DNA of 64,000 nt, from IMG/VR virus record IMGVR_UViG_3300036979_001044, positions 32,811 through 96,810 of that record; one strand, given 5' to 3'. Position 1 is the stretch's first letter. Each line of letters begins with the position of its first letter. A program made the position numbers and the translations under genes. Below the pieces are notes generated by a model. It saw only the letters and a program-made list of their open reading frames with translations. It was not told the DNA's origin and searched no databases. This stretch comes from a virus. This document shows, piece after piece, positions 31,457 to 51,700 of this stretch.

Positions 31457-31515
31457 TACCAAATCCTCCTGCCCCCTCGGGGGCCAAAGTGTCTATCGTT
31501 CGCCGGCCCGACTAC

Positions 31516-32361: not shown

Positions 32362-32372
32362 GCCTCTCTCCT

Positions 32373-33536: not shown

Positions 33537-33877
33537 ATTGGGCCTAGCGCTTGCTTGTAGTATGCCTGCGCCGCGGCGTCGGTGTCGAATTCTATCGGAG
33601 CCCCTGGGCAGAAAGGAGACAACTCGGCCGCCGCTTCACGATCGAGGCGATTCAGGATAAAGCGACCCTTGGGGGTGTTGATCTCCAGGTGCCCATTCTG
33701 CCAGTCGTCGACAATCTGATCGTCGGGCTCCTCGATGGGCAATGTGAGATCCACCCCGCCGTCGGTCCGGAGTAACAACCCCCCGGGCATTCGTTGAACG
33801 CGGCCGAAACGACCGATGGGAGAATTGTGATCAGATACGCAGTGGGTTTCGTAAACCAGATCGGTGAACATGATCAC
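33533..33877 (-). CDS. Hypothetical protein
   Basis: 114 aa, coupled to the stop of the 2685-aa gene. Confidence 0.6.
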   Translation of the reverse strand: MIMFTDLVYETHCVSDHNSPIGRFGRVQRMPGGLLLRTDGGVDLTLPIEEPDDQIVDDWQNGHLEINTPKGRFILNRLDREAAAELSPFCPGAPIEFDTDAAAQAYYKQALGPI

Positions 33878-36800: not shown

Positions 36801-39800
36801 CTTTGATTTTTTCCAGAGTCTTTTGCACCGCCTCCGGGAACTTGCTGTAGTCGGTGTGCACGTTTTCTGGAAAACCCGGAACCCCTATCGGCTGCTGCCA
36901 GCTCAAGATGGTTTCTATCACGAGGTCGCCGAGCGCGTTTGCATCGGGCAGCTCATATATCTGCCCTCCCCCGCTAACGGCTTTCCAAGCATTTGCCGCA
37001 TGTTTGGTATAGGTATAGGTGTTGTTAGTCTTGGACTTGGTCTCGATTACCGTCCCCACCGGGAGCGCGCTAAATTTAGCATCGTCTTCCAGATATGGGG
37101 TGTAATCAGAAATGGTCACGGTCTGCTTTGCAAGGAAAGCGCCCTCCGCAAGTTTTTCAAACTCCTCCCAAGCAGCTGGGTTTTTTGACGCCGGCGGTGC
37201 CACTTCCAGCACCTTCTCGTAGAACAGCTCAGTCGCAAGTAGACTGGCAGGGTAGGAATTCGTCCCTTGCGATCCTTCTACTAGCCATTCCCCATCGGGC
37301 TTCTTGGTGTACTTGTAGAAACTCGTTCCAGCCTGGGCCTGGATAACCGTACCCACCGGGTAATCGTTCAGCGTGATCGTAGTGATACCCTTTGGGACCT
37401 CCGGTTTTTCTGGAACTTTACCGGAACCTGCTTTCCAGGCATCCAGGGTCTCTTCCTGGATATCCGAAAAAACCTTGCCATTGCTGCCCGAGGATAGGGT
37501 CACCCCGTCCGCTGTCAGCACCCAATTGTCCGATGAATCCTTGAGGTAAGTGTAGAAATGCCCGTACTTTCCCTTGGTCTGGATGAAGGTACCCACCGGC
37601 AACTTCGCAAATTCTTCTTCCGTAGTGGGCAAACCCTTCGGAGATTTTTTTGCAAAAATCGGAGCCCCGCCAGGCTTCGTCCAGCTTATGATGACTTCAT
37701 CTTTCAGCTCGGTTGCTACCACATCGCTAGTGAGTGATCCCACATTGGTGCCGTCTGAATATTTCTTCCAGTAATTGTCACTCTCCTTGACGTATTTATA
37801 CTCGATCGATCCGTTCTTGGACTGAGACTGAATGATCGTGTTCTTCGGTAGAAATGTAAAGTCTCCAGTTTTCTCCAACGCGGCAAGCTCGGCTTGAAAG
37901 TCTCCCGTGACTGGCAGTTCTGTGATCGGTGCCAGATTCAGCTTGCTCGGAGCCTTCAGCATCTTGATTATCGTATCTGGATAGGAGAGTACGGATTGCA
38001 TATAAGCAAGCTCATGCAACTCTTTCTTCTCATCCTCCCAAGTCACGTCCCAATCTCCCTTGGCAGTTTTAACCGCAGTGACTATCGGAGAATCCATCTT
38101 CTTTTCTATAGAATACTGGATCAATGTTCCTGCCGGTAGCTTGCCGAGTGCCTCGGGATCGTTCTTGATCGCCGCCTTTATCTTAGACGCGGCCTCAATC
38201 GGGTGGAACTTGAACCACTCCCAGTTCTCCGCGCTCGGCTCCCCCTCTTTTTCTGGAACTTTATCGACACCTTCTTTCCAAGCAAAACCCGGTAGCGCGT
38301 CGAATATCGACTCTTTTTCTGGAACTTCGATCTTGGTGATCTCATTGAACGGCTGTTTCCAAGAATTGGCTACCGTCAGATCCTTGTAGGTATTTCCCGA
38401 TTCCAAATTGCTCCAACCCGCCTCTGTCTTGACATACACATAAGTAGGATGGGAAGTCACATTCACATGAACCTTGGTGCCAAGCGGGTAAGCCTTTATC
38501 TGCTCCAGACTCGGCGGGGGAATTGGCCCCCCGGAAGTAGTCGCGGGTTTCTTGGGCGCCTGATAGTCGAACACGGGTAGAAGTACCTTGGGTTCCGACC
38601 CTATGATCACATGGTCAAGCAACTCGATTGAAGGGTGCGTACCGTAGGGGCCGGCTTCAGTGTTGGGCGCAACTGTGAAGGTCCACTGCCCGCCCTTGGT
38701 CTTCTCGGCCTGGTGCGATCCTTTCTCCCACGGACTTTTCCAGGAGATCGTCGTTCCTTCCGGAAGAGCATCAATCACAGCACCAGTCACGTCCTTGAGC
38801 GGATGCCAGTCGTACTCGTCCTTGGGCCCCAAAGCCCCGGCTAGTGCATCCACTGCGGAAGTAATCTGCACCATTTCTTCTGGAACCGGCGCGCCCGGTC
38901 CTTCCCACGACTCGATCTTCTCGTCCTGCATCATGTTGTAGGCTTCGGCAGTAGTTATTTCCGCCGTGTCTGCCGATGCGAATTTATTGATCAGCGTCAC
39001 CTTCCATTTGCCCCCAAAGAGCTTCTCGTAGACGGTCTTGTTGTCGTTACCGTCGTCGGTCTGAATCTTGGTTCCGTATGCAGCAGCTTCCAGAAATTCC
39101 AGAGTAGCCCCGCCTATCGTCGGAGCTAGGGATTCAGCTCCAGCGGGAGTAGCGGCTCCTGGTTCAGGAACTGAAGGAACAGGAAGAACAGGAGCAGGAA
39201 CAGCGCCAGCTCCAGTACCCAGTTCAGCTGCTGAAGCCGCCGGAGCTTCTTTTGGGCTGATTCCCCAAAACTTCCATCCACCACCAGAAGGGACTTTGTT
39301 GGTTTTGTTTTTGGCTTTGTAGTCCGCAGCATCGGAATATCCTTTCTGGACAATCCAGACATGATCCGACGCGGCGCTCAGTGTCTGGAAGGTCTGCGCG
39401 GTCTGCCCGGGGATTTCAACCAGCAACTGCCCATTCTGGAGAACGCTGAGAGTGACCTCCTGCTTCTTCTCGTAGCCAGGAACCTTCTTCTTCACCTTGA
39501 TGACCGTGCCCTTGGCGAGCGGGCCCTCGGTGAACTTGGGCGCATTTTCTGGAACCACCGCGGTCGGCGGCAGGATGGCCTCTGGCGGCGGACCTGCCGG
39601 GAACTTGGCCAGCGTCTCCTTGTCCTTCTCGGCGAGGGCCGCAGTAGCTTTGTAGCTACCCAGCTTATCCGCCAGGCTCTCGCCCGCCCATAGCTCGAAC
39701 TTGTGCGCGAGCACGTCGATCTGAAGTTTGCCCAGCACCCCGTTCTTCACCGTCCCGTCGAGCCCTTCCCACCAGCCCCACATTTCTGGTTTTCCCACCT

Positions 39801-41931
39801 TCGATACCCGGGCGGTCAAGATCAACGTGCCTACCTCGCTATCGCTCACCTTCACCGCGACCCCCGGAGGCAGCGGCAAATCCCACGCGGTCGTGTAGTG
39901 CTCCTTGCCGCTATTGGCCACCAGCCACTCCTGAATCTCCAATGGCAAAAACTGACCAGTCACCACCTGGCCGTTGGTCCAATCGTGCAGCAACTGCATT
40001 GCCGCGACTACCGGCTGCTCGGGCGCGACGACCTTCTGCTCCTCCAGCTCGGCGACGGTCTGGGTCACTGGCGCCGGCGGCTCCTCGGCCTTGCCCGCGG
40101 CCTCAGCCAGCTCCTGCTCAAAGAGCTTGAGCTGGAAGACTTTCGAGCCCAGCGAGATGCCCTTGGCCTTCTTCTCGGTCGCCGACAAGGTCAGCGGCAA
40201 ACCCTGGTTGAACAGGTACAAGCTATCGCCGGCCGCGTTGAGCGAGGTAAACCCGACCATCTTTCCGTCCGGGTAAGTCACCACGAACGACGGCTTTTTC
40301 CCTTCCCAGTTCTCGCCGACTTCCAGCCCGTACTGCTTGCCCTTGTACGCAGTGGTCAGCTTCATCCCGGGTGCAGGCACTCCCGACGGCCACCAGCTAG
40401 CCGGAACCACGCCCGGGGTGTGGATAGTCACCTCCACCGACTTGCCGCCCTTCTTCGTGAGCGGCCAGCCGGCCTTGGGCTTCCCGGCAACCACCGGGGC
40501 GACTTCCACCGCCTTGAGCTTCGGGGGCGATCCTGGAACCACCGGGGTCACTGCCGCCACTGCCGTGAGAGGAATCTCCAGCTTGGTCGGGCCGTGCTTG
40601 GGCTTGGCCTTGGGCTTGGCGGCCGGCTCTCCCTCGGGGGGAGTCTCCCAGGCTACCTGGACCGTCTCAGGCTTGGGCAGGACCACCTTCTTCCCCAACT
40701 CCGTACTCAAGAACCCTTCAAAATCTGAACGCAAATTTTGAAGACGGGCGAGCATTTTCTGGAGCTGCGCTTGCGGGTCTGCGTGCGTCCAACCGGAGAC
40801 CGTCGACACGTAGGGAGCGACAATCAATTGAAATTGCTCAGGAGATATCTGGTCCGCACGGTTCACTACATCGGCCACCGCCTCGATGAGCCCAGCCGAA
40901 TCGATCTCCCCCGACTTGATCTTCTCCCAAAATTTGTTGTAAATCGGGTGGCTAGGGTTCGGAGAGTAGTCCGCCTCCAGCTTGTCCTTGCCCAGAAACT
41001 TCCAGCTCTGCCCCTTGTCGATGGCAGCCAACTGCCCGCCTTGACTCAGGAAGTTTCCAGCGTGACTGTCGTGGTTGGAGATGAGCCAATCCACCACCTG
41101 GTGTTTCATGATCAGTGCTTTGTACTTCTTGAGGTTTTCCATCTGAGGGTCGGAGTGCTGGCTCGAACTCTCCTGCCAGGTCTGCCCGTCCAGAATCTGG
41201 ATGAGCGCTCCACCCTTCCCCTGTACTTCCACGTACTTGACCGCAGGGATGAGGTTACCCAGAAGCAGTCTCCCCAGCCGGCAGGCGGCCTCTTCCGCTC
41301 GGGCGATGATCGGGTCAGCGGCCTTGAAGACCCACTTGTGCCCGCCCTTGCTCTCGAAGAGCTTGTTGCCATGCGAGCCAGAGAACTTCCCAGCCGGTAA
41401 CTCCTTCAGCTCCGAGAGTGCCGGGAATGACCCGTCCCCGTACTGCCCGCTGGCCATCTCCGCCGCCCACCCGGTTTCCTGCTCCTCTGAGGGCCGTAGA
41501 GGCTCTCCAAGGTGCGGGAGGAGAGAAGCCTTAGCCACCTTCCACTTCCCCCCGCCGAGAGGCTGGGGGGTCACAGAGAACGCTTCCTGGAGGAGGCTAG
41601 CTCCCTCCTTGCTGAGATGCACCTGCTCTGCGTCTACCGCCCCCTGGAGCCCCAGCTCCATGAGCCACTTGACCAGGGCCACGTCTTGCTGTGCGGGAGT
41701 GTAGGTGTGCTTGGCCTGAAGAATGGCGACCAACTGCTGCGCTGCGGCGCTACCGGCGTAGATCGGCTTGCCGTTTGACTTATACCCGACGATCTTCCCG
41801 TTCCGCGGACCGATGGCTATAATCGACAGTCCCTGCCAACTCCCCAGATTTATCTTTACTTTCGCGGTCTTGACCAGCGCCTTGATCAACGGTCGCGGTT
41901 CCAGAAAATGGAAAGCTGGTAGTGAATTCAT
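33874..41931 (-). CDS. Giant polyvalent protein: HipA/PI3K-like kinase, RAMA-like domains, 8 internal repeats, putative ADP-ribosyltransferase
   Basis: Kinase motifs WVFK...AEEAA...DWLISNHDSHAGN...AIDKG; FTSLNAAG and FQTLSAAS...GGWKFW units; LPxGTxI repeats; C-terminal SPGPD..SGGSKGVFCR...NEILF. Confidence 0.75.
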   Translation of the reverse strand: MNSLPAFHFLEPRPLIKALVKTAKVKINLGSWQGLSIIAIGPRNGKIVGYKSNGKPIYAGSAAAQQLVAILQAKHTYTPAQQDVALVKWLMELGLQGAVDAEQVHLSKEGASLLQEAFSVTPQPLGGGKWKVAKASLLPHLGEPLRPSEEQETGWAAEMASGQYGDGSFPALSELKELPAGKFSGSHGNKLFESKGGHKWVFKAADPIIARAEEAACRLGRLLLGNLIPAVKYVEVQGKGGALIQILDGQTWQESSSQHSDPQMENLKKYKALIMKHQVVDWLISNHDSHAGNFLSQGGQLAAIDKGQSWKFLGKDKLEADYSPNPSHPIYNKFWEKIKSGEIDSAGLIEAVADVVNRADQISPEQFQLIVAPYVSTVSGWTHADPQAQLQKMLARLQNLRSDFEGFLSTELGKKVVLPKPETVQVAWETPPEGEPAAKPKAKPKHGPTKLEIPLTAVAAVTPVVPGSPPKLKAVEVAPVVAGKPKAGWPLTKKGGKSVEVTIHTPGVVPASWWPSGVPAPGMKLTTAYKGKQYGLEVGENWEGKKPSFVVTYPDGKMVGFTSLNAAGDSLYLFNQGLPLTLSATEKKAKGISLGSKVFQLKLFEQELAEAAGKAEEPPAPVTQTVAELEEQKVVAPEQPVVAAMQLLHDWTNGQVVTGQFLPLEIQEWLVANSGKEHYTTAWDLPLPPGVAVKVSDSEVGTLILTARVSKVGKPEMWGWWEGLDGTVKNGVLGKLQIDVLAHKFELWAGESLADKLGSYKATAALAEKDKETLAKFPAGPPPEAILPPTAVVPENAPKFTEGPLAKGTVIKVKKKVPGYEKKQEVTLSVLQNGQLLVEIPGQTAQTFQTLSAASDHVWIVQKGYSDAADYKAKNKTNKVPSGGGWKFWGISPKEAPAASAAELGTGAGAVPAPVLPVPSVPEPGAATPAGAESLAPTIGGATLEFLEAAAYGTKIQTDDGNDNKTVYEKLFGGKWKVTLINKFASADTAEITTAEAYNMMQDEKIESWEGPGAPVPEEMVQITSAVDALAGALGPKDEYDWHPLKDVTGAVIDALPEGTTISWKSPWEKGSHQAEKTKGGQWTFTVAPNTEAGPYGTHPSIELLDHVIIGSEPKVLLPVFDYQAPKKPATTSGGPIPPPSLEQIKAYPLGTKVHVNVTSHPTYVYVKTEAGWSNLESGNTYKDLTVANSWKQPFNEITKIEVPEKESIFDALPGFAWKEGVDKVPEKEGEPSAENWEWFKFHPIEAASKIKAAIKNDPEALGKLPAGTLIQYSIEKKMDSPIVTAVKTAKGDWDVTWEDEKKELHELAYMQSVLSYPDTIIKMLKAPSKLNLAPITELPVTGDFQAELAALEKTGDFTFLPKNTIIQSQSKNGSIEYKYVKESDNYWKKYSDGTNVGSLTSDVVATELKDEVIISWTKPGGAPIFAKKSPKGLPTTEEEFAKLPVGTFIQTKGKYGHFYTYLKDSSDNWVLTADGVTLSSGSNGKVFSDIQEETLDAWKAGSGKVPEKPEVPKGITTITLNDYPVGTVIQAQAGTSFYKYTKKPDGEWLVEGSQGTNSYPASLLATELFYEKVLEVAPPASKNPAAWEEFEKLAEGAFLAKQTVTISDYTPYLEDDAKFSALPVGTVIETKSKTNNTYTYTKHAANAWKAVSGGGQIYELPDANALGDLVIETILSWQQPIGVPGFPENVHTDYSKFPEAVQKTLEKIKEGVVAGSKPTGGANHSTIEKPSGWPAWVPPPGVVISGEWQGKKFYLLNGQYGYVKNTDDPNVLIQFAVVGEDGVFHVGGSDENADDALAYALSATDVGTSVTEVKEQLGLNKLSFPVGSNFYNLSGTQSPLAGKPVAQMTPAEKVTKVKTSMYLVDALKNHPLLQEGTLKFKKAKGTAMYVCLDGVEGASTKLYNALKELNVEHHIKNKGGIPKVNAQGAFVAIDGQVLQFTQVEVETTALEASSVKHAPSDPNWQTMPEAKAKPKKKTKAQLAAEKEAAAKFEAAKQKAVAIKAWGTTHPPVVDKGQLQTLAYLQKDFASYQIPVGVIARTAGEELVLSHKTHQKQFAYYLKILHEATPFQMETIETPWGEAVKLDVAGLQKALEQKFKVGIGKMITGPDGKEYPDGTTFQKKTFKHTVSDLISSEPGFYKIKEHATDPVNLAFLKVVGTSPESMAQMKAIIAKYGLESPHPEPKLGSGSVVHSIFKKSLEKVFSVEETYAVDVPEQPEEFVQSGLPSVDTGEYWSEVGDGSADLADVASIKPSLYGHVMRVGAPGELRDFCIRFRRVKDKQGKLYYEFTGDLVNFNSGKSELSTGTAQFGSILGSKGTEPDGGSTDVATFDPETGTHTEYTPKISSAPTPGGFCGKTESGSSILVVPPSSSQDTFKNTFRVRIPATENPLSELREAFQKMGKDPDKMLAPINEDSDRIFKKSMLVRGLMGAKGWNEDSFSPMTMHDEAWLDGQLSKLGAKGKVEGLRVVKTFDNHISVIADDAEKFQKWSFPYVGASLSGTFLQLIQGSGWASRKNCLVHGVWHSGQSPGPDIQSGGSKGVFCRVAGVNSVVSESYACQIIFSPRLFKRVDWWRYNADGYGNTNSHQAHGSSVTYGKKRYETDLNGLNEILFEGGVGLKDIVAVVVDDSDERKQMIAALKKAGKTEINGKSLEDFIVGKVHKGVSAFGTAADFAKALEIAPVE

Positions 41932-42142: not shown

Positions 42143-42361
42143 TCAGGCTGCATGCGTCCGAGCCAGTTCCAGGTCCATCCGCACATCCCAGAACAACCCA
42201 GCCAGCTCGGGGTACTGGCGCTCGATGTCGAGATTGCGTTGCCCTTCGACCCAAGCCACGGCGTAGCGGTGCGCGACCTCCAGCCCGAAAGCAGTCAACA
42301 GCCCATCAGAATCCTCGGTGGGTTTACCGAGGGCCTTGCTTAGCGGCATCACGTACTTCAT
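42143..42361 (-). CDS. Hypothetical protein
   Basis: 72 aa, MKYVMPLSKAL, with a GGAGG RBS. Confidence 0.5.
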   Translation of the reverse strand: MKYVMPLSKALGKPTEDSDGLLTAFGLEVAHRYAVAWVEGQRNLDIERQYPELAGLFWDVRMDLELARTHAA

Positions 42362-42617
42362 GGATGAACCTCCAGGCGTCGCTCGCGCGGATGTAGACGA
42401 TCCCGTCCAGCACCTTGCTCTGCTCCAGAATGGCTGGGAGCTTTTTCACTTTCCCCTCCCAGTAGACCGAGACTTCCAGCTCCTTGGGGTTCATGATCTC
42501 CTCGGTCCACATGATGTCGTCCTTGAGCGTCGCTCCAGAAAGACGCGGCTCGTAGGTCCCGTCGGCCCGCTTCAAAAGAAAAAGCACCTGCTCGTTAGTC
42601 TCTGTCAGATTCGCCAT
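42324..42617 (-). CDS. Hypothetical protein
   Basis: ORF from MANLTE, directly after the MuF polyprotein. Confidence 0.55.
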   Translation of the reverse strand: MANLTETNEQVLFLLKRADGTYEPRLSGATLKDDIMWTEEIMNPKELEVSVYWEGKVKKLPAILEQSKVLDGIVYIRASDAWRFIHEVRDAAKQGPR

Positions 42618-42625
42618 GGCTACCC

Positions 42626-45600
42626 TCACTTGTTCTTGTCCGATTTCAGCTTCTCGCTGATCCAGGCAACGATCTTATGCTGATCCACCGCGATGTACTC
42701 ATTGTAGAGGTGCCCGACTCCATCGCTCTCCATGATCTTGCGCAACTTGGCCAAGTTCTCCTCGGGCGTCCCGCCCTTCTTGCACACGGTACGATAGAGG
42801 ATAGCGGCACGATGGGACGTATCGAGCTTTTTGAACGTCGCCTCGAAATGCGCGATGCACTGGTCGTGGGTGTCTTTGTCTGGAATCCAATCACGCATCC
42901 GGAACTTGTAGTAGCGGCAGGAAAGAGAATCGTTTTGCGGCATGTCCTTGATCGGGATGGGCAGCCGCAGCACCTTGGCCTGGGCGTCGGCGATACCGCG
43001 ACCGGTCGGATCGACAATGACCTTGTTCTTCGGGTCGTAGTAGATGCTGTTGCAGGTGAAGTCGCGGCGCTCGAAATCCTTGCGCATCTCGTGGTCCACC
43101 CGAATGTCCGGCCACCACTTGCCGTTGACCGGGTTGGCGCACTGCTCGCCGTCCGCGGTCGTATAGGACACCATGCCTGTCAGGTCAATGCCCGGGCCAC
43201 TCTTGGTGGCACAAACAGTCATCCAGGCCTCGTCTCCAGGGGCCTTGCTAGTGATCCGCCTGTCCCCGGGCAAATCCGCACCAACTTTGTTGAAGCAAGT
43301 TTTCATCACCGTCGCGTCGGCCGTGGTCACCATATCGAAGTCCTTGAGCTTGGAGATCACCTTCTCATCGGTGATCTCACTTCCCTCTTGGACCAGATTG
43401 AGCAGATCGCGCACCGCGCCGCCAACCAGATAGGTCTCGCGGCCTCGTTCCCAGAGCCAATCGACGTACTCGGTTGGGGTGTGCGTACCCACCGCAGCGG
43501 TGGCCATCAACTCGTCCAGAATCTTCTGGTGCCGTTCATTGGGGCGGACGAAAGACTTTTCTGGAAGATCATGCACCGCTGACTTGTAGTGCTCGGGGCC
43601 CGCCTCATTGGACTTGAATCCCTTCCAGTCCTCGAAGTGCAGTTGCGTCGAGTGGTTCTTGTCGTGCGGGCCCTGGTAGTCCGGCCCAAAATCAACGATC
43701 GGATGCCCCGCTTGATCCGTGCCGATATACGTCCCCGGAATCTCCTGGCCCTTTACGATCGCAGTGAGCTTGGCGCCGTTTCTCATGTACCCCTTCAGCA
43801 CCTTCGGAACTTTCAGCTCGCTCTTGGGTACGAGCTGGATCTCGCCCACCCGCTCGACTTTCGATGGAGCAAAAACGGTATCCGCCTTCACCTTCAGCGC
43901 GGGCGCCTGGGCGGGTTTGGGCTTTCCCGGCTTCTCCGCCTTTTCTGGAAAGACCGCCAGCGGATCGGCGTTCTCAATTTTCTGGAATAGATCGCGACTC
44001 ACCGTGATCCGGTTGTAGGTCGGGCCGGGCTCAATGGATGCCTCAATCTGGAAATGCTTCCGCAGCTGCTCGATGACCCCCTTGTGCCCGGGAGCGAACT
44101 TCAGCACCACCAGATCAGGATCGGTGTGGTGCGGGCGCAAATGCCCATCCAGGTACGTCATGAGTCGCGCGGTCCAGCCCGGTTCCTTGGTCTGTCCACC
44201 GTTGCGGAAGTAGATGGGCGTGTTGCCATCCCAGGCGACGATCTTACCTCCGCGGGGCCCAGTCGCGATGATGGCGGCCATCGACTTCTCCAGGTCAGCT
44301 TTGTCCTGGGGGCGGAGCGCTACCTTGGCGGTGTTGCCGATGACGTAGCGCCTACGCTCTTCGGTGCCCTCCCTCGCTGAGTCCTGCCCGGTCACCGCCG
44401 CGTCGGGCAAAACGATCGGGTAGACGTTACGCAGAGGCTCGGTGACCGTGTAGATCTCCTTGTCCCGCTTCAGTCCCTCGGCGACCTCTTCCTCCTCATC
44501 CTTCCAGTCGCGGAGCAAGTCAGCCGGATCGATGTGAGGATTGGGACCTTTTTCTGGAACGCGCCGCTTGGGGGTCTCGACCAGGTAATTGGCCGCGGTG
44601 CCATGGCCGCCCGCGCGATTGCCCGCCTGGCTGGTGGCCGCGCCGATGTCCGCCGATACCTGCCCGCCCTTGCCCAGCCCGGATAGCGGGATGACCAATC
44701 GGAGCTTGGGCGACTCCTCGGCGCTCTGCACCCGGGTGAGCCCCACCCAGCGCTTGAAGGCCTCGATGTCCATGGGGTTGGTCTGGAGGAAGAACTTCTC
44801 CGGCCGGTCGTAGCTCAATCCGTAGGCGCGCTCGGCATCCTCCTGATTGGAGAAGCCCAGCATGCACTTCTGCTCGTCCCAGATGCCGGTCTCGGGATTC
44901 TGCTGCTCGATGACGTAGGCCATCTCGGAGTCGGGGTCAGGGCCGATGAACACGTCGAGAGGATCATCGTCGGCGCCGGTGGTGCCCAAGATCTCCCCGT
45001 AGGCGTGCAGCATCCAAGTCTTGTCGGTGCCCCCGTCCGGGGTGTGAAAGGTCCGCGAGGTGCCCTTTGGGTTCTCGATGTGGATGGGCAATCCCCAGAG
45101 ATGCACCAGCTGCTCGCCACTGGAGAGAGCCTTGCGCAGATCGTCTTCGCGCAGGAGCGCGCGCATGAGCGCCTCCTCGCTCTTGTAGACCTTGCCGCCC
45201 TTGCCCCCGGGCACCAACTCCCCCTCCTTGTTGAAGCCGTAACCGTCTGGAATCCTTAGTAATTGACAAGAACAATGCGGATGGATCGTGCCGATGACCG
45301 CTTGCCACTCGGCGGTCTTCTTGCCCACGTTGGTGCCGTTGGCTACCAGGGTCGAGAGCGGGAAGATGCGCGGGTTGCCGTCCGGGCCGTTGTAGAGCCG
45401 GTCGCAGTGCTTGCAGTTATGCACTGCTAACCCATTGGCAAAATAGCTCTCGTCTTCCTCCACTTCCAGATTGAACACTTCACCTGTGAAAGGAACCACA
45501 GCAATGCTGTTGACTCCTCTGGCATAGAACGATATAGGCTGCGCATGAACCGTAGACGCAATATTCCCAAATCCGAATTGATTCGACTCTGGAAAACCGG

Positions 45601-46954
45601 AAAACATACGATTGGGTCTTTGGGGCGGCACTTTCAAGCCGGCAGTACCACAATCAAACGCCGCTTCCGTGAATGGGATATCCCCATACCCAGCCGAACC
45701 GAAAGCCAGATCGCCAACTTGCGCAGAATGACCCCCGAACAAAGAAAAGCCCTCACCGAGAATGCGCGTAAAGCGCGTAAACTGGCATGCAGCCCAGCTG
45801 CGCAGCATGCCAAAGCTCTGACCAATCAGCGCACCCAGCGCTCGGTTACTCCCACCACCCAAGCCTTGGCCAAAAGACTCGCAGCGTTCCATCCCGTACT
45901 TGAATTCGCTTTCGATAAATTCAACATCGACATTGCTATCCCGCATCTGAAGATAGCGATAGAGGTAGACGGCGGGGGGTGGCATTACACGGGAGCCGTC
46001 CGTAGACGAGATCAAATCAAAGAGCTTCTCCTCTGGGAGCAAGGCTGGATCGTGTTGCGCGTTCCCGACAGTTGCGCAGACCAAGTAATCGCCGCAGTGA
46101 ATCGAATCAGCGCGCCGCCAGTTCATATTAACTAGGAATGGATGATTTTCTGTAGCATAGGGTTTCTGCCCATCAATCCCGATCAGTTTTCCAGAAAAAT
46201 GACGCTGAAAAGCGTGGGTCACCTTCCGCCAGCGCAGCTTATGGGTGAGCACCTCTTCCCCGATACGCACCTGCTCGATGGGAATTTCCCCGCTACGGGT
46301 GTGCACCAACGTGCCCGCGGTAAAACAAGCATCCGGCATTACCCGCTTTGCAACCAGGGCCTCCTCACCGTAGCGCTTGGCGATGTGGTCGGCGAGCCCG
46401 GTCTGCATGGCGGTCTGCTTCTCGGTGACCGCGATGCGATCCCAGTCGCGGGTCCAGTCCTCGCTCGCCCAGCCGAGGTCGCTCTTGAGCTGCTTCGCCG
46501 TCTCGCGCTTGGCGATATTCTGGGCGGTCTTGTCCCGCACAACGCGCTCCAGCTTGGCGCGGAGCTTGGCGTCGGCCTCGATGAGGATGTTGCCGGTCTG
46601 CTGGTTGACCTTGTTGCCCAGGCCCTTCAGGTAGCCAGCGGCGCTGAGCTGGGCGAACTTCACCGCCCGCTGCTCGGGGACCGAGAGCGGGATAGGGTTC
46701 TTGCGAACGTATTTCTGGAAAGCGTCGAAGCTCATGTTGGCCGTGGCCTTGTTCTGGAGAATTCCCAAGAGCTGGCCGTAGAGGTAGGCCTGCTCCACCG
46801 AATTCAAGTGCCCCTCGATGAGCCCAGCCTGCTCCAGCTCCGTCAAAACCCCGGGGTCAACCGCCTCCGGGCCGATGGCCGAGACGATGAAGGCGTTGTG
46901 GTGCTTCTCCACGATCTTCTGGACTTTCTGGAGTTGCTCGGGGGTCAATAGCAT
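42626..46954 (-). CDS. MuF-like head morphogenesis protein with intein, fused to inorganic pyrophosphatase and CCA-adding/poly(A) polymerase-type nucleotidyltransferase domains
   Basis: MuF: RDWDRIAVTE, DAC|..|CKHC, HPHCSC. iPPase: IENPKG.R...YG.I.GT.GADDDPLDVF...DEQK.MLGF. NTase: YLVGGAVRDLL, KDFD, DFERRDFTCN. Confidence 0.85.
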   Translation of the reverse strand: MLLTPEQLQKVQKIVEKHHNAFIVSAIGPEAVDPGVLTELEQAGLIEGHLNSVEQAYLYGQLLGILQNKATANMSFDAFQKYVRKNPIPLSVPEQRAVKFAQLSAAGYLKGLGNKVNQQTGNILIEADAKLRAKLERVVRDKTAQNIAKRETAKQLKSDLGWASEDWTRDWDRIAVTEKQTAMQTGLADHIAKRYGEEALVAKRVMPDACFTAGTLVHTRSGEIPIEQVRIGEEVLTHKLRWRKVTHAFQRHFSGKLIGIDGQKPYATENHPFLVNMNWRRADSIHCGDYLVCATVGNAQHDPALLPEEKLFDLISSTDGSRVMPPPAVYLYRYLQMRDSNVDVEFIESEFKYGMERCESFGQGLGGGSNRALGALIGQSFGMLRSWAACQFTRFTRILGEGFSLFGGHSAQVGDLAFGSAGYGDIPFTEAAFDCGTAGLKVPPQRPNRMFSGFPESNQFGFGNIASTVHAQPISFYARGVNSIAVVPFTGEVFNLEVEEDESYFANGLAVHNCKHCDRLYNGPDGNPRIFPLSTLVANGTNVGKKTAEWQAVIGTIHPHCSCQLLRIPDGYGFNKEGELVPGGKGGKVYKSEEALMRALLREDDLRKALSSGEQLVHLWGLPIHIENPKGTSRTFHTPDGGTDKTWMLHAYGEILGTTGADDDPLDVFIGPDPDSEMAYVIEQQNPETGIWDEQKCMLGFSNQEDAERAYGLSYDRPEKFFLQTNPMDIEAFKRWVGLTRVQSAEESPKLRLVIPLSGLGKGGQVSADIGAATSQAGNRAGGHGTAANYLVETPKRRVPEKGPNPHIDPADLLRDWKDEEEEVAEGLKRDKEIYTVTEPLRNVYPIVLPDAAVTGQDSAREGTEERRRYVIGNTAKVALRPQDKADLEKSMAAIIATGPRGGKIVAWDGNTPIYFRNGGQTKEPGWTARLMTYLDGHLRPHHTDPDLVVLKFAPGHKGVIEQLRKHFQIEASIEPGPTYNRITVSRDLFQKIENADPLAVFPEKAEKPGKPKPAQAPALKVKADTVFAPSKVERVGEIQLVPKSELKVPKVLKGYMRNGAKLTAIVKGQEIPGTYIGTDQAGHPIVDFGPDYQGPHDKNHSTQLHFEDWKGFKSNEAGPEHYKSAVHDLPEKSFVRPNERHQKILDELMATAAVGTHTPTEYVDWLWERGRETYLVGGAVRDLLNLVQEGSEITDEKVISKLKDFDMVTTADATVMKTCFNKVGADLPGDRRITSKAPGDEAWMTVCATKSGPGIDLTGMVSYTTADGEQCANPVNGKWWPDIRVDHEMRKDFERRDFTCNSIYYDPKNKVIVDPTGRGIADAQAKVLRLPIPIKDMPQNDSLSCRYYKFRMRDWIPDKDTHDQCIAHFEATFKKLDTSHRAAILYRTVCKKGGTPEENLAKLRKIMESDGVGHLYNEYIAVDQHKIVAWISEKLKSDKNK
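45416..46327 (-). mobile_element. Intein (class 1) in the MuF domain, 304 aa
   Basis: Block A CFTAGTLV, block B ATENHPF, block F VFNLEVEEDESYFANG, block G VHN followed by Cys+1. Splicing restores PDA-CKHC. Confidence 0.9.
45545..46135 (+). CDS. HTH plus DUF559/Vsr-like PD-(D/E)xK endonuclease, antisense inside the intein
   Basis: IDIAIPHLKIAIEVDGGGWH...RDQIKE..L..QGWIVLRV; N-terminal HTH-like TIGSLGRHFQAGSTTIKRRF. Confidence 0.85.
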   Translation: MNRRRNIPKSELIRLWKTGKHTIGSLGRHFQAGSTTIKRRFREWDIPIPSRTESQIANLRRMTPEQRKALTENARKARKLACSPAAQHAKALTNQRTQRSVTPTTQALAKRLAAFHPVLEFAFDKFNIDIAIPHLKIAIEVDGGGWHYTGAVRRRDQIKELLLWEQGWIVLRVPDSCADQVIAAVNRISAPPVHIN

Positions 46955-47282: not shown

Positions 47283-47476
47283 GTCTCGCTCTCCTCGATT
47301 TCTGCGCGCAGATAAGTCAACACCGCTACGCCTTTTCCGATTAGCCCTAAAATCTTCTCCGCATCACAAACCGCGGCAGACCGGGATAGCAACGTATTCC
47401 AGAATGAGCACCCCGCCACGTAGCCGCCGGACAAAAACATCGGACAACCGTCGGCGCAGTGCACGGGCTTAGCCAT
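47192..47476 (-). CDS. Small Cys-rich hypothetical protein
   Basis: MAKPVHCADGCP...GC...C. Its start overlaps the upstream stop, but it also overlaps the next gene by about 90 bp. Confidence 0.4.
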   Translation of the reverse strand: MAKPVHCADGCPMFLSGGYVAGCSFWNTLLSRSAAVCDAEKILGLIGKGVAVLTYLRAEIEESETCKPTSAATAPDTEGSSPVTDTPGASPKPS

Positions 47477-48791
47477 GATACTGCTCACCCCACTGTGCGG
47501 TATCGATCTGCATCTCGGCAAGGGCTTTGCGCACCCAGAGGGGCAGCTGCTTCCCCTCTCGGCGCGCGGCCGAGACCTCCGCGTAGCACTCGTGGGGGTT
47601 GGTCGCCGCGTAGTCGGAGATCTGGGACATGATCTCGTTCTTGTGCTGCTTCAGCTGGGGTACGCAGTGCTTCTTCCAGATCTCCCAACAGGAGAGCTTC
47701 GATCCCTTCGCAAACAGGTGCCGGAGCACAAACCCCTCGACGTGCCCGCACTCGTGGCGGATGGTCGAGATAAGCCCATGGCCAGTCGTGAAGTGGCTGT
47801 CCCCTTGAGTCGCCTTGGCGTAGCCCTCGTTGAAGTAGTCCGGGCCGACTACCATCACCGATCGCTGGTAAGGCTTCTGGTCGTAGGGATGCGCGACCGC
47901 AATGGCCGATCCCCCAAGCGGGCACTGCTGGGTGAGATCGATCGGATGCTTTCCAGAAAGTGCGATGTGGTTCTCCTCCGGATGCGCCTTGGCCCACTTC
48001 TTCAGCTGCTCGGGCGTGCCCAAGAAGTGCAGATGAGCAACCACCAACGGATGCTGCTCGCTCAGGGCCTTGTTGGCGGCGTTCGCTGTCGCCAGGTCCG
48101 GATAGCGGACTGCCAGGTGCGGCAGATGCTTCGCAGCCCAGCCGTGAGCTTCTTCCAAAGACTCAGCAGCTCCGGTGAAGTGGTCGACAAGCTGATGCTT
48201 GGGCCTAGCGGTACCGGGGACAGATCCCGATACCGGGTCTGGTTCAGCTGGTGCCGGGGGCGCCACTTTGGGCGATGCCACTTCTGGCGTCTGATTTTTC
48301 GCCGCTGCTTTGAATTCATGTCCCGCTCCTGGAGTGAAACTCTTCGGCAGCATGAGCAACAGGTACTTCCCGCCGGGGATGATCGGCGCCTCGATGTGCT
48401 CGCTCTGCTTGAAGGCGGCGAGTGCCGCGGCCTGGGCGTGAGGGATCTTCACCACCACGAGTCCGGGGTTCGACTTGTGCGGCACCACCTTCCCGCCCAA
48501 CTGCGCCGCCCAGCTGTCGAGCGCCCCGCTCAGCCGCTCAGGGCTCCAGTGCTGGGTGTGCTCGGGGTCCGCCCAGAGCCCGCCCTTGGGGCCAACGAAG
48601 GGACCGGACTTCTCCAGCTTCAGCGACTCGTAGGGCGGGGTTTTGTCTTCACGTAGCCGCTGCTCCTCCCAGTACTTCTCGGGGTTCTTCTGGGACTCGT
48701 CGAACCCCTGCCCGAACAGCTCGCGGATTCGCTTTTCGTCTTTGGGGTCGACCTTCAGATCCACCCCGGTCCTGACCGGCTTCTCGCTCAT
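47469..48791 (-). CDS. Zincin-like metallopeptidase with GPxGG module
   Basis: RHECGH (HExxH) plus ISDYAATNPHECYAE; N-terminal LEK|SGPFVGPKGGLWADPEH. Confidence 0.8.
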   Translation of the reverse strand: MSEKPVRTGVDLKVDPKDEKRIRELFGQGFDESQKNPEKYWEEQRLREDKTPPYESLKLEKSGPFVGPKGGLWADPEHTQHWSPERLSGALDSWAAQLGGKVVPHKSNPGLVVVKIPHAQAAALAAFKQSEHIEAPIIPGGKYLLLMLPKSFTPGAGHEFKAAAKNQTPEVASPKVAPPAPAEPDPVSGSVPGTARPKHQLVDHFTGAAESLEEAHGWAAKHLPHLAVRYPDLATANAANKALSEQHPLVVAHLHFLGTPEQLKKWAKAHPEENHIALSGKHPIDLTQQCPLGGSAIAVAHPYDQKPYQRSVMVVGPDYFNEGYAKATQGDSHFTTGHGLISTIRHECGHVEGFVLRHLFAKGSKLSCWEIWKKHCVPQLKQHKNEIMSQISDYAATNPHECYAEVSAARREGKQLPLWVRKALAEMQIDTAQWGEQYHG

Positions 48792-51700
48792 GCTCCACCC
48801 CAAATTCTGGAACCGGCCGTGGCTCCAGACACGATGTGCGGCGGCAGCTCAGCCGCCTTGCTCTGGATGTACTGCATGGCCTGGCCGTAGAGCGCGTCGG
48901 CGTCTACCGAAAGCGCCTCTGGGGGCATCTGGTCCAGGAATTGCACCGGGTCGCCCTTCTTGGCCTTGGCGAAGACGAACGTCGCCTTGTCCTTGTTCTT
49001 GCTATGAAAAGCGGAGAAGTTCTTGGCCCCGTGGGCGTAGCTGTCGGCGAACAGCCGGGCGTCGACCATGCGCCCGATGCTCTTTGCTCGATCCACCGCC
49101 CCGGGCCAAGTGGTCATCGGATCAGCGGACACAAACAGAAAAACTGGTTTGATTCCGCGCTTCTCGCACTCCTCCATCAACCAAGGATTCTCCGTCCCGT
49201 TTTGCTCGCCGGCCGCATCCCAAGTTGCCGCTACGCTCTGGGCCAGCTCGGGGCGCGCACCCAGCGCCGAGCCCTTCCCCCCAGCCACCCCACCGCTGGT
49301 GACCAGGATCTTCCGCTCGCCCTCGGGCATCTTGGCGATCTCGTCCAGCCGTTTCATGAAGGCGCGCTTGACCACCGCGTTAGCCGTCTGGTGGAGCGCG
49401 GTGTTGTACAACGCCCGGGCCTGGGCGCGATCGGGATGGATGGGCTTGCCCTTCTCGTCCGGGGGCAGATCGGGCCGGGTCCACTCAGGCATCATGCTCT
49501 TGGCCGCGTCGGTCTCGAAAATGAAGTTGTTCTTCTTGACCACGTCGTAAAAGGCGGAGGCCATCCCATCGGAGTCCGCCTCGAAGGCATCGGCGAACTT
49601 GCCCTCCACCGCCCGCTCCTCCGCGGTCAGGTTGGGCAACCGGGGAATGGTGGGCGGCGGAGCGACGGTCTTGCCCGGCAGTCCCACCCTAGCCGCGTCG
49701 GCGACCCCATCCCCATCAGCGTCGACCATGGGATCAACCTGGTAGGCCAGCGGGTCTCCGCCCGCCGGCGGGGTGAGCCCGGCCTGCGGGGCCCGGGGAG
49801 CGCTCTGCATCTGGGGCGCGATCTGCGCCGCCGGAGTCGGGGCGCCCATCTGGGGCGGGGGTTGCGGGGTCTGCGCCTGGGGAGTTGGGGCCGGTTGCGC
49901 GCCAGCTCCGCCCCCAGTCCCTTCCTCGGTCCAAGGAATGGTGTGCTCCGGGTCCGCCCACTTGCCGCCCCGGGGCCCGATAAACATCCCGGCCTTGAAC
50001 AGCGAGAGCTGCGCGCTCTCGGATTCGTCCAGTTCCAGAAAATCGTCCAGAGACTTCTGGAACAGCAGATCCTTCACCTTCTGCTTGTCGACCGCGACCA
50101 GGTGGTATTGCCCACCCTCAAAGGTCGGCTCGGCGATTCCATATTTCTGGAGCTGGGCCAGCGCCTCGGTCGCATGCTTGGGGACCTTGACCATCACCTT
50201 GGTCGGGTCTCCGTAATGCTCCTTGATCTTGATACCATGCTCTTGGATGAATCCAGAAAATGCCTGGGCCGGCACAGACCCCTGCTCAGGCGTTAGCTTT
50301 GGTGCCGGCGCCGGCTCAGGCGTAGCAACCGCAGGTTTAGCCTCCGGGGCCTTCTCGGGCGCAGCTGTTGGCTCAGGAACATACGCAGGAGCCGGCGCGG
50401 GCTTCTTCCCCGCAGATACCGCAGTATCCACAGCTTTGGCCCCCATTTGCACATATGCTTCTTCCGATGCCAGGTAGCCCTTCTTCTTTCCGCCCTTCCC
50501 CTCCCAAGCCCAGAAGACATCGCCACCGATTTCAACTTTGGTGAACGACTGCCCGTACCCCAGATGGATTGTTGTTCCCGCTGCAAGCGAATTCAGCTTT
50601 CCAGAATATTCCGCCGTGATCGTGTCAGTATCTTTCTGCGCTTGCTCCAGCGAAGCTGCAATGCCGGCGGGGTCTACAACATAGGGAGTCGCAGACTCCT
50701 TCTTGACCTCCGCAGCTAGCTTGTCAAACATCTCCACGGTCAGCGGCTTGTCCACCCCGGAACTGGGCGAAGGAACTCCCTGCCAGGGCACCTCGACCAC
50801 CGTCGCCGAACCAGGCAAGATCTCGGTGCCAGCCGTTTGCGGCTCGGGCAGGTTGGGGGCTAGCTCGGGGTGATCCATGTCCGACAAAGCTGGGACCTGC
50901 GAAGTCGCAGCGCTCTCCGCGCCACCGCCCGCCGTGGGCCCGGCGACCTTGCCGTGGATCTGGGTGAGCAGTTCATCCACGGATATCGGCTTGCTCATCC
51001 ATTCCATCTCCGCCGCGGTGAGCTGCTTGCCTTGCGTGAGCTTCTGCCCCAGCTCGTACTTGCGCCGCAAAATGTCGTTCACGTTCTCGTCGAAGAGATT
51101 GCCCTCGGCGGTCATCCAGTAGACGTTGACCGCGTTCTTCTGCCCAATGCGATGGGCGCGATCCTCCGCCTGCCTGACATCGGCCGCCGTCCAGGGCATG
51201 TCATTGAAGACAACCTTATCGGCCGCTGTCAGCGTCGCACCAACGGCCATGGATTGACGGGTTGTCACAAAGACACGCTTCTCACCGATGAAGTTGCCAG
51301 CCTCATCCTTTTTCTGGAACTCCTTCTTGGCCGCTTCACGGGCGTCATCCTGCATCTGCCCGTGATGCAGGATAGCCAGGTCGCCGAACTTCTCGGCGAT
51401 AGCCTTGGCCGCCTCGACCGAATCGCTGAATACGATGACCTTGGAATCGGAGGTATCGAGGATTTCCTGCACCATCGACTCGGTGACCGGAACCTTGCCC
51501 TTGGCAATCTCAGCCTTGAGCTTAGAAAACGCCCCAATCGTATTCTGCTCTCCCATGTCGGGTAGACCAGGGACTGGGTGCTTGACGATCGACGTGGTCT
51601 TTTCTGGAAGGTCTTTGAGCACCGCGGTCTTCTGCCGGGCGATGTAGACCTCGTGCATGTCCATCCAGAGCCCGCCGATGGGTGCGGTCTTGATCGCGTT

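Follow-up and report, generated by a model that had tools for sequence, protein, structure and literature searches.

A class II nucleotidyltransferase module in a putative polyvalent head protein of a myovirus-like prophage and its candidate small protein partner

The window analyzed here is a stretch of 64,000 nucleotides (positions 32,811 to 96,810 of the IMG/VR record IMGVR_UViG_3300036979_001044) from a 96.8-kb, myovirus-like provirus. In the head module of this provirus, the ORF list and translation reveal a single ORF of 1442 codons on the minus strand, spanning window positions 42626-46954 and encoding the protein P0001. The preliminary description of this DNA had taken the interval 42626-45110, which holds only the C-terminal 828 codons of the ORF, as a MuF protein carrying an inorganic pyrophosphatase (InPase) and a nucleotidyltransferase (NTase) of the CCA-adding type. 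The interval was too short, but the domains stand: by Pfam, translation and fold, the presence of the InPase and of the class II NTase, with its motifs A and B, is far beyond chance, and a MuF-type N-terminus is supported by transitive homology. Annotated from Pfam, NCBIfam and PHROG matches, the chain runs from a divergent MuF domain split by an intein, through the InPase, a linker, a GPRGG tag and an SH3-like barrel, to the class II NTase. The features of the locus are as follows.

42626-46954, minus strand: whole P0001 gene, MuF(intein)-InPase-linker-tag-barrel-NTase (ORF list and translation; same architecture in 19 clusters)
46328-46954, minus strand: MuF-like domain, N-extein part, residues 1-209 (homologues P0249, P0252 and P0253 match PF04233 over the aligned region)
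45413-46327, minus strand: intein, residues 210-514, Cys1 ... His-Asn | Cys+1 (Hint_2, Intein_splicing, TIGR01443; intein-free P0002)
45155-45412, minus strand: MuF-like domain, C-extein part, residues 515-600, CxxC...HPHCxC (invariant residues in alignment A1; aligns to the C-terminal half of the PF04233 match of P0253)
44744-45106, minus strand: InPase domain, residues 617-737 (PF18823)
44285-44743, minus strand: low-confidence linker, residues 738-890, ending in an invariant L-x-K|S at K890 (pLDDT)
43919-44284, minus strand: GPRGG hairpins and small alpha/beta "tag" domain, residues 891-1012 (pLDDT 92-97; local phmmer)
43595-43801, minus strand: SH3/Tudor/KOW-like beta-barrel, residues 1052-1120 (high pLDDT in both models; VIA)
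42629-43561, minus strand: class II NTase, head and neck only, residues 1132-1442 (PF01743; Foldseek and VIA; motif conservation)
42324-42617, minus strand: g97, 97 aa, candidate inhibitor or immunity partner of the NTase (ATG 9 nt past the P0001 stop, GAGGG upstream; complex model)
42143-42361, minus strand: g72, second small gene, conserved downstream (tblastn against related loci)

The P0001 gene is located between the portal (55005-56669) and major capsid (30029-31462) genes, amid giant multi-enzyme genes, with a 1930-aa SNF2 protein and a 2685-aa giant as neighbours. Its relatives in IMG/VR keep the synteny of the region, and the 19 protein clusters with the same architecture range from 793 to 2524 aa. 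Two effector-type domains, InPase and NTase, share one chain on a MuF anchor in the surroundings of virion genes, the combination that defines a polyvalent protein (at least two such domains, one chain, virion-gene surroundings), and we read P0001 from its sequence as such a protein, belonging to the head of a myovirus-like prophage. The polyvalent proteins described by Iyer and colleagues (PMC5512222) likewise combine a multi-enzyme chain among head genes with a MuF anchor, an InPase of the hairpin-less clade PF18823, and SNF2 and giant neighbours. P0001, by contrast, ends in a class II head-neck NTase as terminal module, and the text of Iyer, Burroughs, Anand, de Souza and Aravind (2017) mentions no CCA or class II tRNA-type NTase (PMC5512222).

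The assignment of the N-terminus to MuF rests on transitive homology, because 42%-identical homologues match PF04233 while P0001 itself does not. Pfam returned no PF04233 match in P0001, in the intein-free P0002 or elsewhere in the provirus, and in an hhalign comparison of the family profile with SPP1 gp7 the probability was 0.75%, with an aligned patch of the NPIPL type only. The homologues P0249, P0252 and P0253 (E 1e-58 to 1e-68) match PF04233 over the aligned region, P0253 at 34.4 bits against a cut-off of 29.6, and P0253 bears an ART toxin domain as well. An ESM Atlas search with the N-terminus placed 20 of 30 matches in the PF04233 set. A stand-alone homologue in SP-10 adjoins the SP-10 portal gene; P0001 itself lies in the head module near the portal, with no second MuF in the phage. 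The MuF label is thus probable through these relatives rather than secured by a direct Pfam match. Within the MuF domain lies a 305-aa intein with intact splicing blocks, absent from the preliminary description, which is recognized by Hint_2, Intein_splicing and the TIGR01443 model of the intein C-terminal region and whose boundaries are set by the intein-free allele P0002 (1137 aa). Residues C514, H516, C517, H558, P559, C561 and C563 of the C-extein are invariant in alignment A1.

The InPase domain matches PF18823 with an E-value of 1.3e-33 (116 bits against a cut-off of 26.8), and its residues E627, R634, Y652, D662, D667, D693, E694 and K696 are invariant in A1. The same region matches the C-terminal InPase-like region of the portal gp19 (PDB 9b41), whose sequence was the only one returned by phmmer against the PDB; no canonical pyrophosphatase was found in that search. 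The gp19 model covers residues 94-528 only, and its InPase part is without structure (PMC11456595).

Residues 738-890 between the InPase and the tag domain are probably disordered, as the model has pLDDT values of 34-57 across most of this segment. K890 at its end is invariant in 18 relatives. Prohead protease might possibly cleave the chain at the invariant L-x-K|S/A sites K608, K762 and K890, an idea retained because of the position and invariance of the sites and not their count: L-x-K-S/A sites occur four times in P0001 against 4.0 expected, which is not above chance, and comparison of [LIMF]xK[SAG] with shuffled sequences showed no enrichment. The GPRGG tag module, matched by no Pfam family, recurs by local phmmer in neighbouring proteins of 444, 1930 and 2685 aa, and the stand-alone NTase proteins P0021 and P0023 begin at this module, giving NTase units of about 530-560 aa. 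The barrel that follows resembles Tudor, PWWP and KOW barrels in the wide VIA search (Z 5.6-6.8), a weak match to a common fold. Matches in the fold search with the middle region were all taken up by this small barrel, and none was informative on the tag domain.

The C-terminal module is recognized by the PolyA_pol head family PF01743 over residues 1174-1330 (E 1.9e-14, 54.6 bits against a cut-off of 23). The translation contains LVGGAVRD at 1176-1183, the D1205-x-D1207 pair and RRDFTCN at 1296-1302. Residues G1178, G1179, R1182 and D1183 are invariant together with the acidic triad D1205, D1207 and D1257; motif B (R1296 to N1302) and motif C (D1315, G1318, G1320 and D1323) are invariant in the 18 sequences of A1, with the triad and motifs A to C staying invariant in about 57 relatives at 22-38% identity. 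This conservation makes it very improbable that the domain has lost catalysis and serves as a structural or packaging appendage, a reading that has no specific support beyond the fact that MuF extensions are sometimes non-enzymatic.

An AlphaFold2 model of residues 1030-1442 (pLDDT 93.9, pTM 0.92) supports the class II fold. Foldseek and VIA match the module to CCA-adding enzymes, PAP I and FAM46. The head and neck of CCA-adding enzymes and PAP I (3h38, 1miv, 3aql) are reproduced with Z-scores of 15-17, and the module shares with them motifs A, B and C as well as the iEvTT-strand acidic residue; the CCA enzyme of T. maritima (3h38) aligns with Z 17.0 and an rmsd of 3.5 over 240 residues, and E. 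coli PAP I (3aql) with Z 16.4. Similarity to FAM46/TENT5 (7cqz, 6jyj; Z 14.6-15.6 over 250-258 of about 330 residues) extends to the build of a compact NTase with a helical domain, lacking tRNA-binding domains of its own, with the two-domain poly(A) polymerase FAM46C reaching Z 15.6 over 258 of 331 residues. These proteins, however, are eukaryotic, are 12-14% identical to the phage module and show no common RRDFTxN signature, and the resemblance is structural only.

Several features nevertheless separate the module from the CCA-adding enzymes and PAP I. The chain stops after the neck, aligning to residues 1-280 of 424 in 3h38 and 1-273 of 395 in 1miv; the body and tail, which bind tRNA, are therefore absent. 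Motif D, placed by HMMER alignments to S. pombe Cca1 and the human mitochondrial CCA enzyme, has changed across the family from EDxxR to x-N-x-x-L, with N1341 and L1344 at the Asp and Arg positions and Leu or Ile at the Arg position in nearly all 57 relatives. A 13-residue insertion separates GGxVRD from DxD, and the SH3-like barrel precedes the head. NCBIfam equivalog models score far under their cut-offs (17-22 bits against 290-624 for the CCA models, 51.5 against 305.65 for pcnB TIGR01942, and overall 17-52 against 290-702). As judged by alignment and model, the module is an NTase without the parts that confer tRNA- and CCA-specificity.

Two small genes lie downstream of P0001, g97 directly. 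A small ORF stands at the position of g97 in loci L004-L013 and L024, and in each of the seven NTase-bearing loci with sequence beyond the gene end one lies directly downstream. Homology of the distant ORFs to g97 is weak, because they align poorly and share only 25-30% identity with it; tblastn with g97 recovered the close clade only, and neither g97 nor g72 matched a Pfam family. Downstream position alone is not NTase-specific, because small ORFs also follow some genes that encode MuF and InPase only. The same probably applies to g72, because it is also found beside L079, whose gene matches the query only up to residue 871. Cellular relatives in Myxococcota MAGs stand in tandem, without small neighbours.

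Modeling of the NTase-g97 complex predicts that g97 docks in the catalytic cleft. The model reached an ipSAE of 0.74, whereas the best of three controls reached 0.00; one of the three runs of the pair itself also gave 0.00, with a partner pLDDT of 42, and across runs the contact agreement was at least 0% and the partner pLDDT at least 42. The mark for this score is attained by 58 of the 80 solved complexes as against 2 of the 110 mismatched pairs, a rough calibration since our own alignments were supplied. The predicted interface involves D1257, R1296-R1297 and the loop 1339-1343 equivalent to motif D on the NTase, and a conserved LKDDIMW segment on g97.

Taken as a whole, we put a probability of roughly 0.5 on P0001 being a polyvalent effector loaded into the capsid, with an NTase that modifies RNA 3' ends in toxin-like fashion and is restrained by an immunity-like partner, and not a CCA repair enzyme. 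By its gene context, the protein would be packed into the capsid through the MuF domain, the shared GPRGG tag or both, possibly cut by the prohead protease at the three conserved lysines, and would enter the next host alongside the DNA. There the NTase would add ribonucleotides to the 3' ends of host RNA, as a toxin-like or takeover activity. In the producing cell, the g97 product would occupy the catalytic cleft and hold the NTase off, in the manner of MuF toxin-immunity pairs, and the InPase would act as an independent, commonly MuF-linked module that may also clear PPi locally. A point against this reading is that the barrel could stand in for the missing body and tail in binding RNA or tRNA. 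More specifically, the NTase unit and g97 may form an undescribed toxin-immunity pair, in which a minimal class II NTase with a rewired base-selection pocket is packed into the capsid and caps or tails host RNA 3' ends, possibly blocking tRNA charging like MenT; this narrower proposal is tentative, and we think it has less than an even chance of being right.

The preliminary description had offered two functions, a virion-delivered tRNA repair enzyme and an RNA-tailing toxin, and the second fits better. We prefer the toxin reading over repair because the small gene is positionally conserved and its product is predicted to block the catalytic cleft; cytotoxicity has also been reported for short class II-like NTases of phages (PMC7291057; bioRxiv 10.64898/2026.09.15.751885). 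For repair, the NTase would rebuild CCA on host tRNAs that defence nucleases or NTase toxins have damaged, while the InPase pulls the reaction. In its favour, no solved folds or sequence families lie closer than those of CCA-adding enzymes, and the rNTP motif B is preserved. Free-standing CCA enzymes are also common in phages, where they are interpreted as RNA repair, and delivery alongside the DNA would pre-empt abortive-infection tRNases. The anatomy speaks against this function: body and tail are missing, EDxxR is not kept, the equivalog scores are low, no tRNA genes were found in the provirus, and an enzyme for repair would have no use for a partner of the predicted kind that fills its active site. 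We regard repair as unlikely.

A similarly unlikely alternative is that the substrate is something other than RNA 3' ends, with the NTase acting in Gad2-like counter-defence or nucleotidylating host proteins, DNA ends or small-molecule signals, and the InPase degrading a nucleotide-derived messenger. Both the RRDFTxN signature and the head-neck fold in its entirety are hallmarks specific to the tRNA-NTase/PAP family; its characterized members, to our knowledge, extend RNA. In favour of other substrates, the change in motif D implies that nucleotides are handled in a non-canonical way, and Iyer and colleagues proposed that the InPase may act on nucleotide-like signals (PMC5512222). The phage NTase Gad2, toxic in its own right, blocks Gabija (bioRxiv 10.1101/2023.05.01.538930), and an ESM Atlas neighbour cluster with PolyA_pol (88%) and Gad2 (23%) provides a lead only; the NCBIfam scan of P0001, however, gave no Gad2 model. 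BFVD matches to short NTases of the gp22/LKD16 type have E-values of 1e-2, far weaker than those to full CCA enzymes. The truncated phage NTases fHe-Kpn01 Gp22 and Emajogi gp22 (annotated as Gad2 family) are toxic when expressed, and Gad2 acts in counter-defence; these are stand-alone proteins of the early-gene type with 180-400 aa, and are likened to the P0001 module through weak structural matches, without a sequence-family link.

The preliminary description had also held that PPi hydrolysis by the InPase drives the NTase. This is chemically possible, but the pairing is not fixed. Were processive tailing to need PPi hydrolysis, the two domains would constitute an obligate coupled machine, and PF18823 is indeed present in 19 of 19 clusters of 793-2524 aa with a P0001-type NTase; P0057 joins InPase to NTase with the MuF missing, and inhibition of NTases by PPi is general chemistry (PMC5512222). 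Against this, some 80 clusters combine MuF and InPase without NTase, such forms of about 600 aa being the majority, the InPase is also fused to portals, and P0021, P0023, P0025, P0043 and P0050 carry NTase units without InPase. In P0001 the two domains are also set apart by some 150 residues of low confidence and by conserved sites of putative cleavage. The sequences indicate that the pairing is modular and not obligate, because each domain is found without the other, and an obligate machine is quite improbable.

The effector reading places P0001 near the MuF polymorphic toxins of temperate phages (PMC5576092), which share the N-terminal MuF, a variable enzymatic C-terminus and a small downstream ORF, and in which a small immunity ORF usually follows the toxin; the ART-bearing P0253 is a 42%-identical homologue of the P0001 N-terminus. 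P0001 differs from these toxins in being longer, multi-domain and intein-bearing, with a MuF below the Pfam threshold, and Jamet et al. (2017) mention neither nucleotidyltransferase nor pyrophosphatase (PMC5576092). The likeness to MenT/AbiEii is one of concept only: these NTase toxins add nucleotides to acceptor ends and block tRNA function, and a cognate small protein neutralizes them, but they belong to another NTase family (DUF1814), making this a possible likeness in working and not in membership.

Polyvalent effectors delivered by the capsid are thought to set up the opening minutes of an infection, and few of their modules have a defined chemistry. The P0001 family brings a class II RNA nucleotidyltransferase into this repertoire. 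If active, the module would be a compact natural template-independent RNA polymerase with a new specificity and a protein inhibitor, and a test case for the modification of RNA 3' ends by phages in takeover or counter-defence. Should the toxin-immunity reading be true, a family of tRNA-end repair enzymes would have been turned into a capsid-delivered weapon. For phage cargo labelled as CCA-adding enzyme, motif D and the body and tail should be checked before the label is read as repair.

The fused NTase occurs in none of 50,697 GenBank phage records searched, and a related-locus search of genome contigs with alignment A1 returned mainly MuF-InPase loci. The family counts some 19 clusters of full length, and 33 cluster representatives reach E<=1e-30 once shorter and cellular forms are included; all are metagenomic.

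The nucleotidyltransferase (NTase) belongs to P0001, the product of a single 1442-codon open reading frame at 42626-46954 on the minus strand (ORF list and translation); the interval given in the preliminary description, 42626-45110, is real but covers only the 3' part of this frame. The window derives from a 96.8-kb IMG/VR provirus record of ~91% completeness; the phage is contractile-tailed, and the gene lies in a long late operon on its minus strand. The first seven lines follow operon order.

55005-56669, minus-strand late operon: portal
48788-54580, minus strand: 1930-aa SNF2 protein with a LAGLIDADG intein
47469-48803: 444-aa protein
42626-46954, minus strand: P0001 gene
33874-41931: 2685-aa giant protein
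30029-31462: major capsid protein
beyond the major capsid protein: sheath and baseplate genes
31516-32463: scaffold-like protein
42327-42617: g97, 97 codons, starting 9 nt past the P0001 stop, GAGGG upstream
42143-42361, minus strand: g72, 72-aa ORF in another frame, 38-nt overlap with the end of g97
43919-44284, minus strand: GPRGG hairpin and ~55-aa alpha/beta domain, also in the genes at 47469-48803, 48788-54580 and 33874-41931
P0001 residues 210-513: Hint/intein matches (Pfam), with an NCBIfam match to the intein C-terminal splicing region
P0001 residues 617-737: inorganic pyrophosphatase (InPase) PF18823, Pfam E 1.3e-33
P0001 residues 1174-1330: PolyA_pol head PF01743, Pfam E 1.9e-14

The translation contains the NTase motifs quoted in the preliminary description (GGAVRD at residues 1178-1183, D1205-x-D1207 and RRDFTCN at 1296-1302) together with the domains named there, and the underlying observation is therefore confirmed. 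NCBIfam matches of P0001 to the PcnB and CCA equivalogs are weak and far below threshold. An exhaustive HMMER search with residues 1100-1442 returned 566 cluster representatives at E<=1e-3, 33 of them at E<=1e-30. [quoted passage not shown] By fold and core motifs the C-terminus is a class II NTase, and the residues used for catalysis and ribose recognition show no variation within the family. It lacks, however, two features that define CCA-adding enzymes: the EDxxR template and the body and tail domains. In the CCA enzymes the alignment spans chain residues 1-280 of about 400-424, which are head and neck; the P0001 chain stops after these, and so the tRNA-holding body and tail are missing. 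In HMMER alignments with S. pombe Cca1 and the human mitochondrial enzyme, x-N-x-x-L stands opposite the E-D-x-x-R of motif D, and almost all 57 sequences have Leu or Ile at the Arg position. Selection between C and A is reportedly made by the Asp and Arg of EDxxR.

The best-supported reading of P0001 is a capsid-loaded polyvalent effector, whose terminal module would be a toxin-like, template-independent ribonucleotidyltransferase of non-canonical specificity, held inactive in the producer cell by g97. This reading is supported by precedents: cytotoxicity in E. coli and P. putida is reported for truncated class II-type NTases of phages (PMC7291057; bioRxiv 10.64898/2026.09.15.751885), and Gad2, a phage NTase, combines toxicity with a role in counter-defence (bioRxiv 10.1101/2023.05.01.538930). 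The RNA-tailing toxin proposed in the preliminary description comes close to it. A non-RNA substrate for the NTase is possible. The other original proposal, tRNA repair by a virion-delivered enzyme, is possible, since the small barrel preceding the NTase might stand in for body and tail, but it is less likely. Neither tRNA genes nor a second PolyA_pol domain were found in the provirus.

A small immunity ORF usually comes after the gene of a MuF toxin (PMC5576092), and for this reason the NTase unit was modelled in complex with g97. The complex scored 0.74, against 0.00 for the best of three controls, with individual runs at 0.74, 0.00 and 0.89; the score mark is reached by 58/80 solved complexes and 2/110 mismatched pairs, both rough counts (own alignments used). 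Contact agreement between the runs is at least 0%, with a partner pLDDT of at least 42. In the best run, the LKDDIMW segment of g97, its most conserved stretch with an invariant D34, touches D1257, R1296-R1297 and the motif-D-equivalent loop 1339-1343, all situated in the catalytic cleft. The model thus supports, but does not show, binding of g97 to the NTase. To our knowledge no such complex has been solved, which makes it unlikely that the prediction reproduces a known structure. Closest relatives carry g97 at 45-91% identity, and the more distant NTase-bearing loci L010, L012, L013 and L024 have a 73-103-aa ORF in its position with a weak common pattern. The second small gene, g72, is more widely conserved than g97: in loci L004-L013 it follows the MuF gene with 41-78% identity, forming the C-terminal part of 157-161-aa ORFs in L012 and L013. 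A further g72 match lies inside a 582-aa ORF beside L079; the match of the L079 gene to the query ends at residue 871 and does not reach the NTase.

The pyrophosphatase was originally proposed to drive nucleotidyl transfer. Pyrophosphate removal could assist any NTase (Iyer et al., PMC5512222), and InPase shows no variation at the residues expected to be catalytic, but each module is also found without the other. InPase is present in 19/19 long clusters with this NTase; about 80 MuF-InPase clusters (~600 aa) lack the NTase, PB1-like phages fuse InPase to portals, and five NTase units (P0021, P0023, P0025, P0043 and P0050) lack InPase. Judged from these architectures, the two enzymes are paired as modules and do not form a dedicated machine.

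The assignment of the N-terminus to MuF rests on homologues and not on a direct match: Pfam PF04233 has no match in P0001, in its intein-free allele or elsewhere in the provirus, and hhalign against SPP1 gp7 was not significant. Searching with the intein-free N-terminus for shorter homologues yielded 111 proteins, among them P0249, P0252 and P0253 (~42% identity, E 1e-58 to 1e-68), which match PF04233 at residues 137-261, aligned to P0001 138-209 and 515-567. In P0253, which carries a C-terminal ADP-ribosyltransferase toxin domain, the match is above cut-off (34.4 bits). ESM Atlas neighbours are mostly PF04233 clusters, a lead only, and in Bacillus phage SP-10 a stand-alone 286-aa homologue adjoins the portal gene. 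We accept, from these sequence relationships, a divergent MuF-family domain whose CxxC...HPxCxC zinc-type motif would be the intein insertion point.

The intein, absent from the preliminary description, spans residues 210-514, with Cys as first residue and a terminal His-Asn followed by Cys. The intein-free allele P0002 (1137 aa) lacks exactly these residues, is 100% identical to P0001 over the C-terminal region searched (1100-1442) and is nearly identical elsewhere. The coexistence of intein-free and intein-bearing alleles (P0001, P0002, P0003) identical in that region suggests recent intein mobility. In some relatives (P0007, P0008) the HPH|C site of the zinc-type motif is occupied by a second intein (columns 579-916 of the family alignment), and P0008 carries both. 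The intein itself (45413-46327, minus strand) has splicing blocks only and no endonuclease family. Antisense to its central region lies a 196-aa ORF (45545-46135, plus strand) with weak nuclease matches, one to REase_MTES_1575 that falls below its cut-off (E 6e-7) and one to DUF559 that just equals it (20.6 bits). It is consistent with a homing nuclease that may be encoded opposite the intein. The SNF2-type helicase gene (48788-54580, minus strand) is a second intein-bearing giant cargo gene of the operon, with LAGLIDADG/Hom_end Pfam matches at residues 675-759.

A second model covers residues 738-1135, mostly at low confidence from 738 to ~895. Residues ~897-1012 are well folded (pLDDT 92-97) into GPRGG beta-hairpins and a small alpha/beta domain, and a Pro/Lys-rich linker leads to a small barrel (~1052-1120) that weakly resembles barrels of the Tudor, PWWP and KOW types (Z 5.6-6.8). 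Local phmmer on a small database (E-values only indicative) also detected the GPRGG motif and the ~55-aa domain in the neighbouring 444-, 1930- and 2685-aa proteins. These two elements, which have no Pfam family and are common to four head-module proteins, are a candidate capsid-targeting or cargo tag. The stand-alone NTase proteins P0021 and P0023 (527-560 aa) start at this module, which suggests that the C-terminal ~550 residues of P0001 are a tagged cargo unit, complete in itself, that was joined to a MuF-InPase protein. P0001 has four [LIMF]-x-K-[SAG] sites, of which three fall at module boundaries (606, 760, 888), with L-x-K-(S/A/G) at 606-609 before InPase, 760-763 after it and 888-891 before the tag. 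Across 18 relatives K608 and K890 never change, within linkers that are variable elsewhere; 11 such sites occur in the scaffold-like protein (z 9.5), and the capsid protein contains LNK|A at residue 30. These sites make it plausible that a prohead protease would cut P0001 into MuF, InPase and NTase units.

The fused form was not found among 50,697 GenBank phage records, where the tRNA nucleotidyltransferases all stand alone and reach at most 33% identity. Iyer et al. 2017 (PMC5512222) and Jamet et al. 2017 (PMC5576092) do not mention the NTase module, and a literature text search for MuF with tRNA nucleotidyltransferase gave nothing relevant. Specific to P0001 is a truncated, EDxxR-less enzyme on a MuF-InPase chassis with a predicted inhibitor. 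Relatives with conserved synteny occur on IMG/VR contigs, and others in MAGs of Myxococcales, Gemmatimonadaceae, Lentisphaeria and Planctomycetota. Cellular versions of the NTase, ~500 aa with disordered N-termini, are found in Myxococcota and deltaproteobacterial MAGs. One Myxococcota MAG locus (L086, 1-3838) has three NTase paralogues in a row, the first truncated by the end of the contig, with low-complexity N-termini and an adjoining conflict-type GT4 glycosyltransferase; at another locus (L082, 2812-4317) one homologue lies between an M50 peptidase and an unknown gene. Seven separate stretches of the 7704-aa protein P0044 match the NTase query, and it may contain several NTase-like modules.
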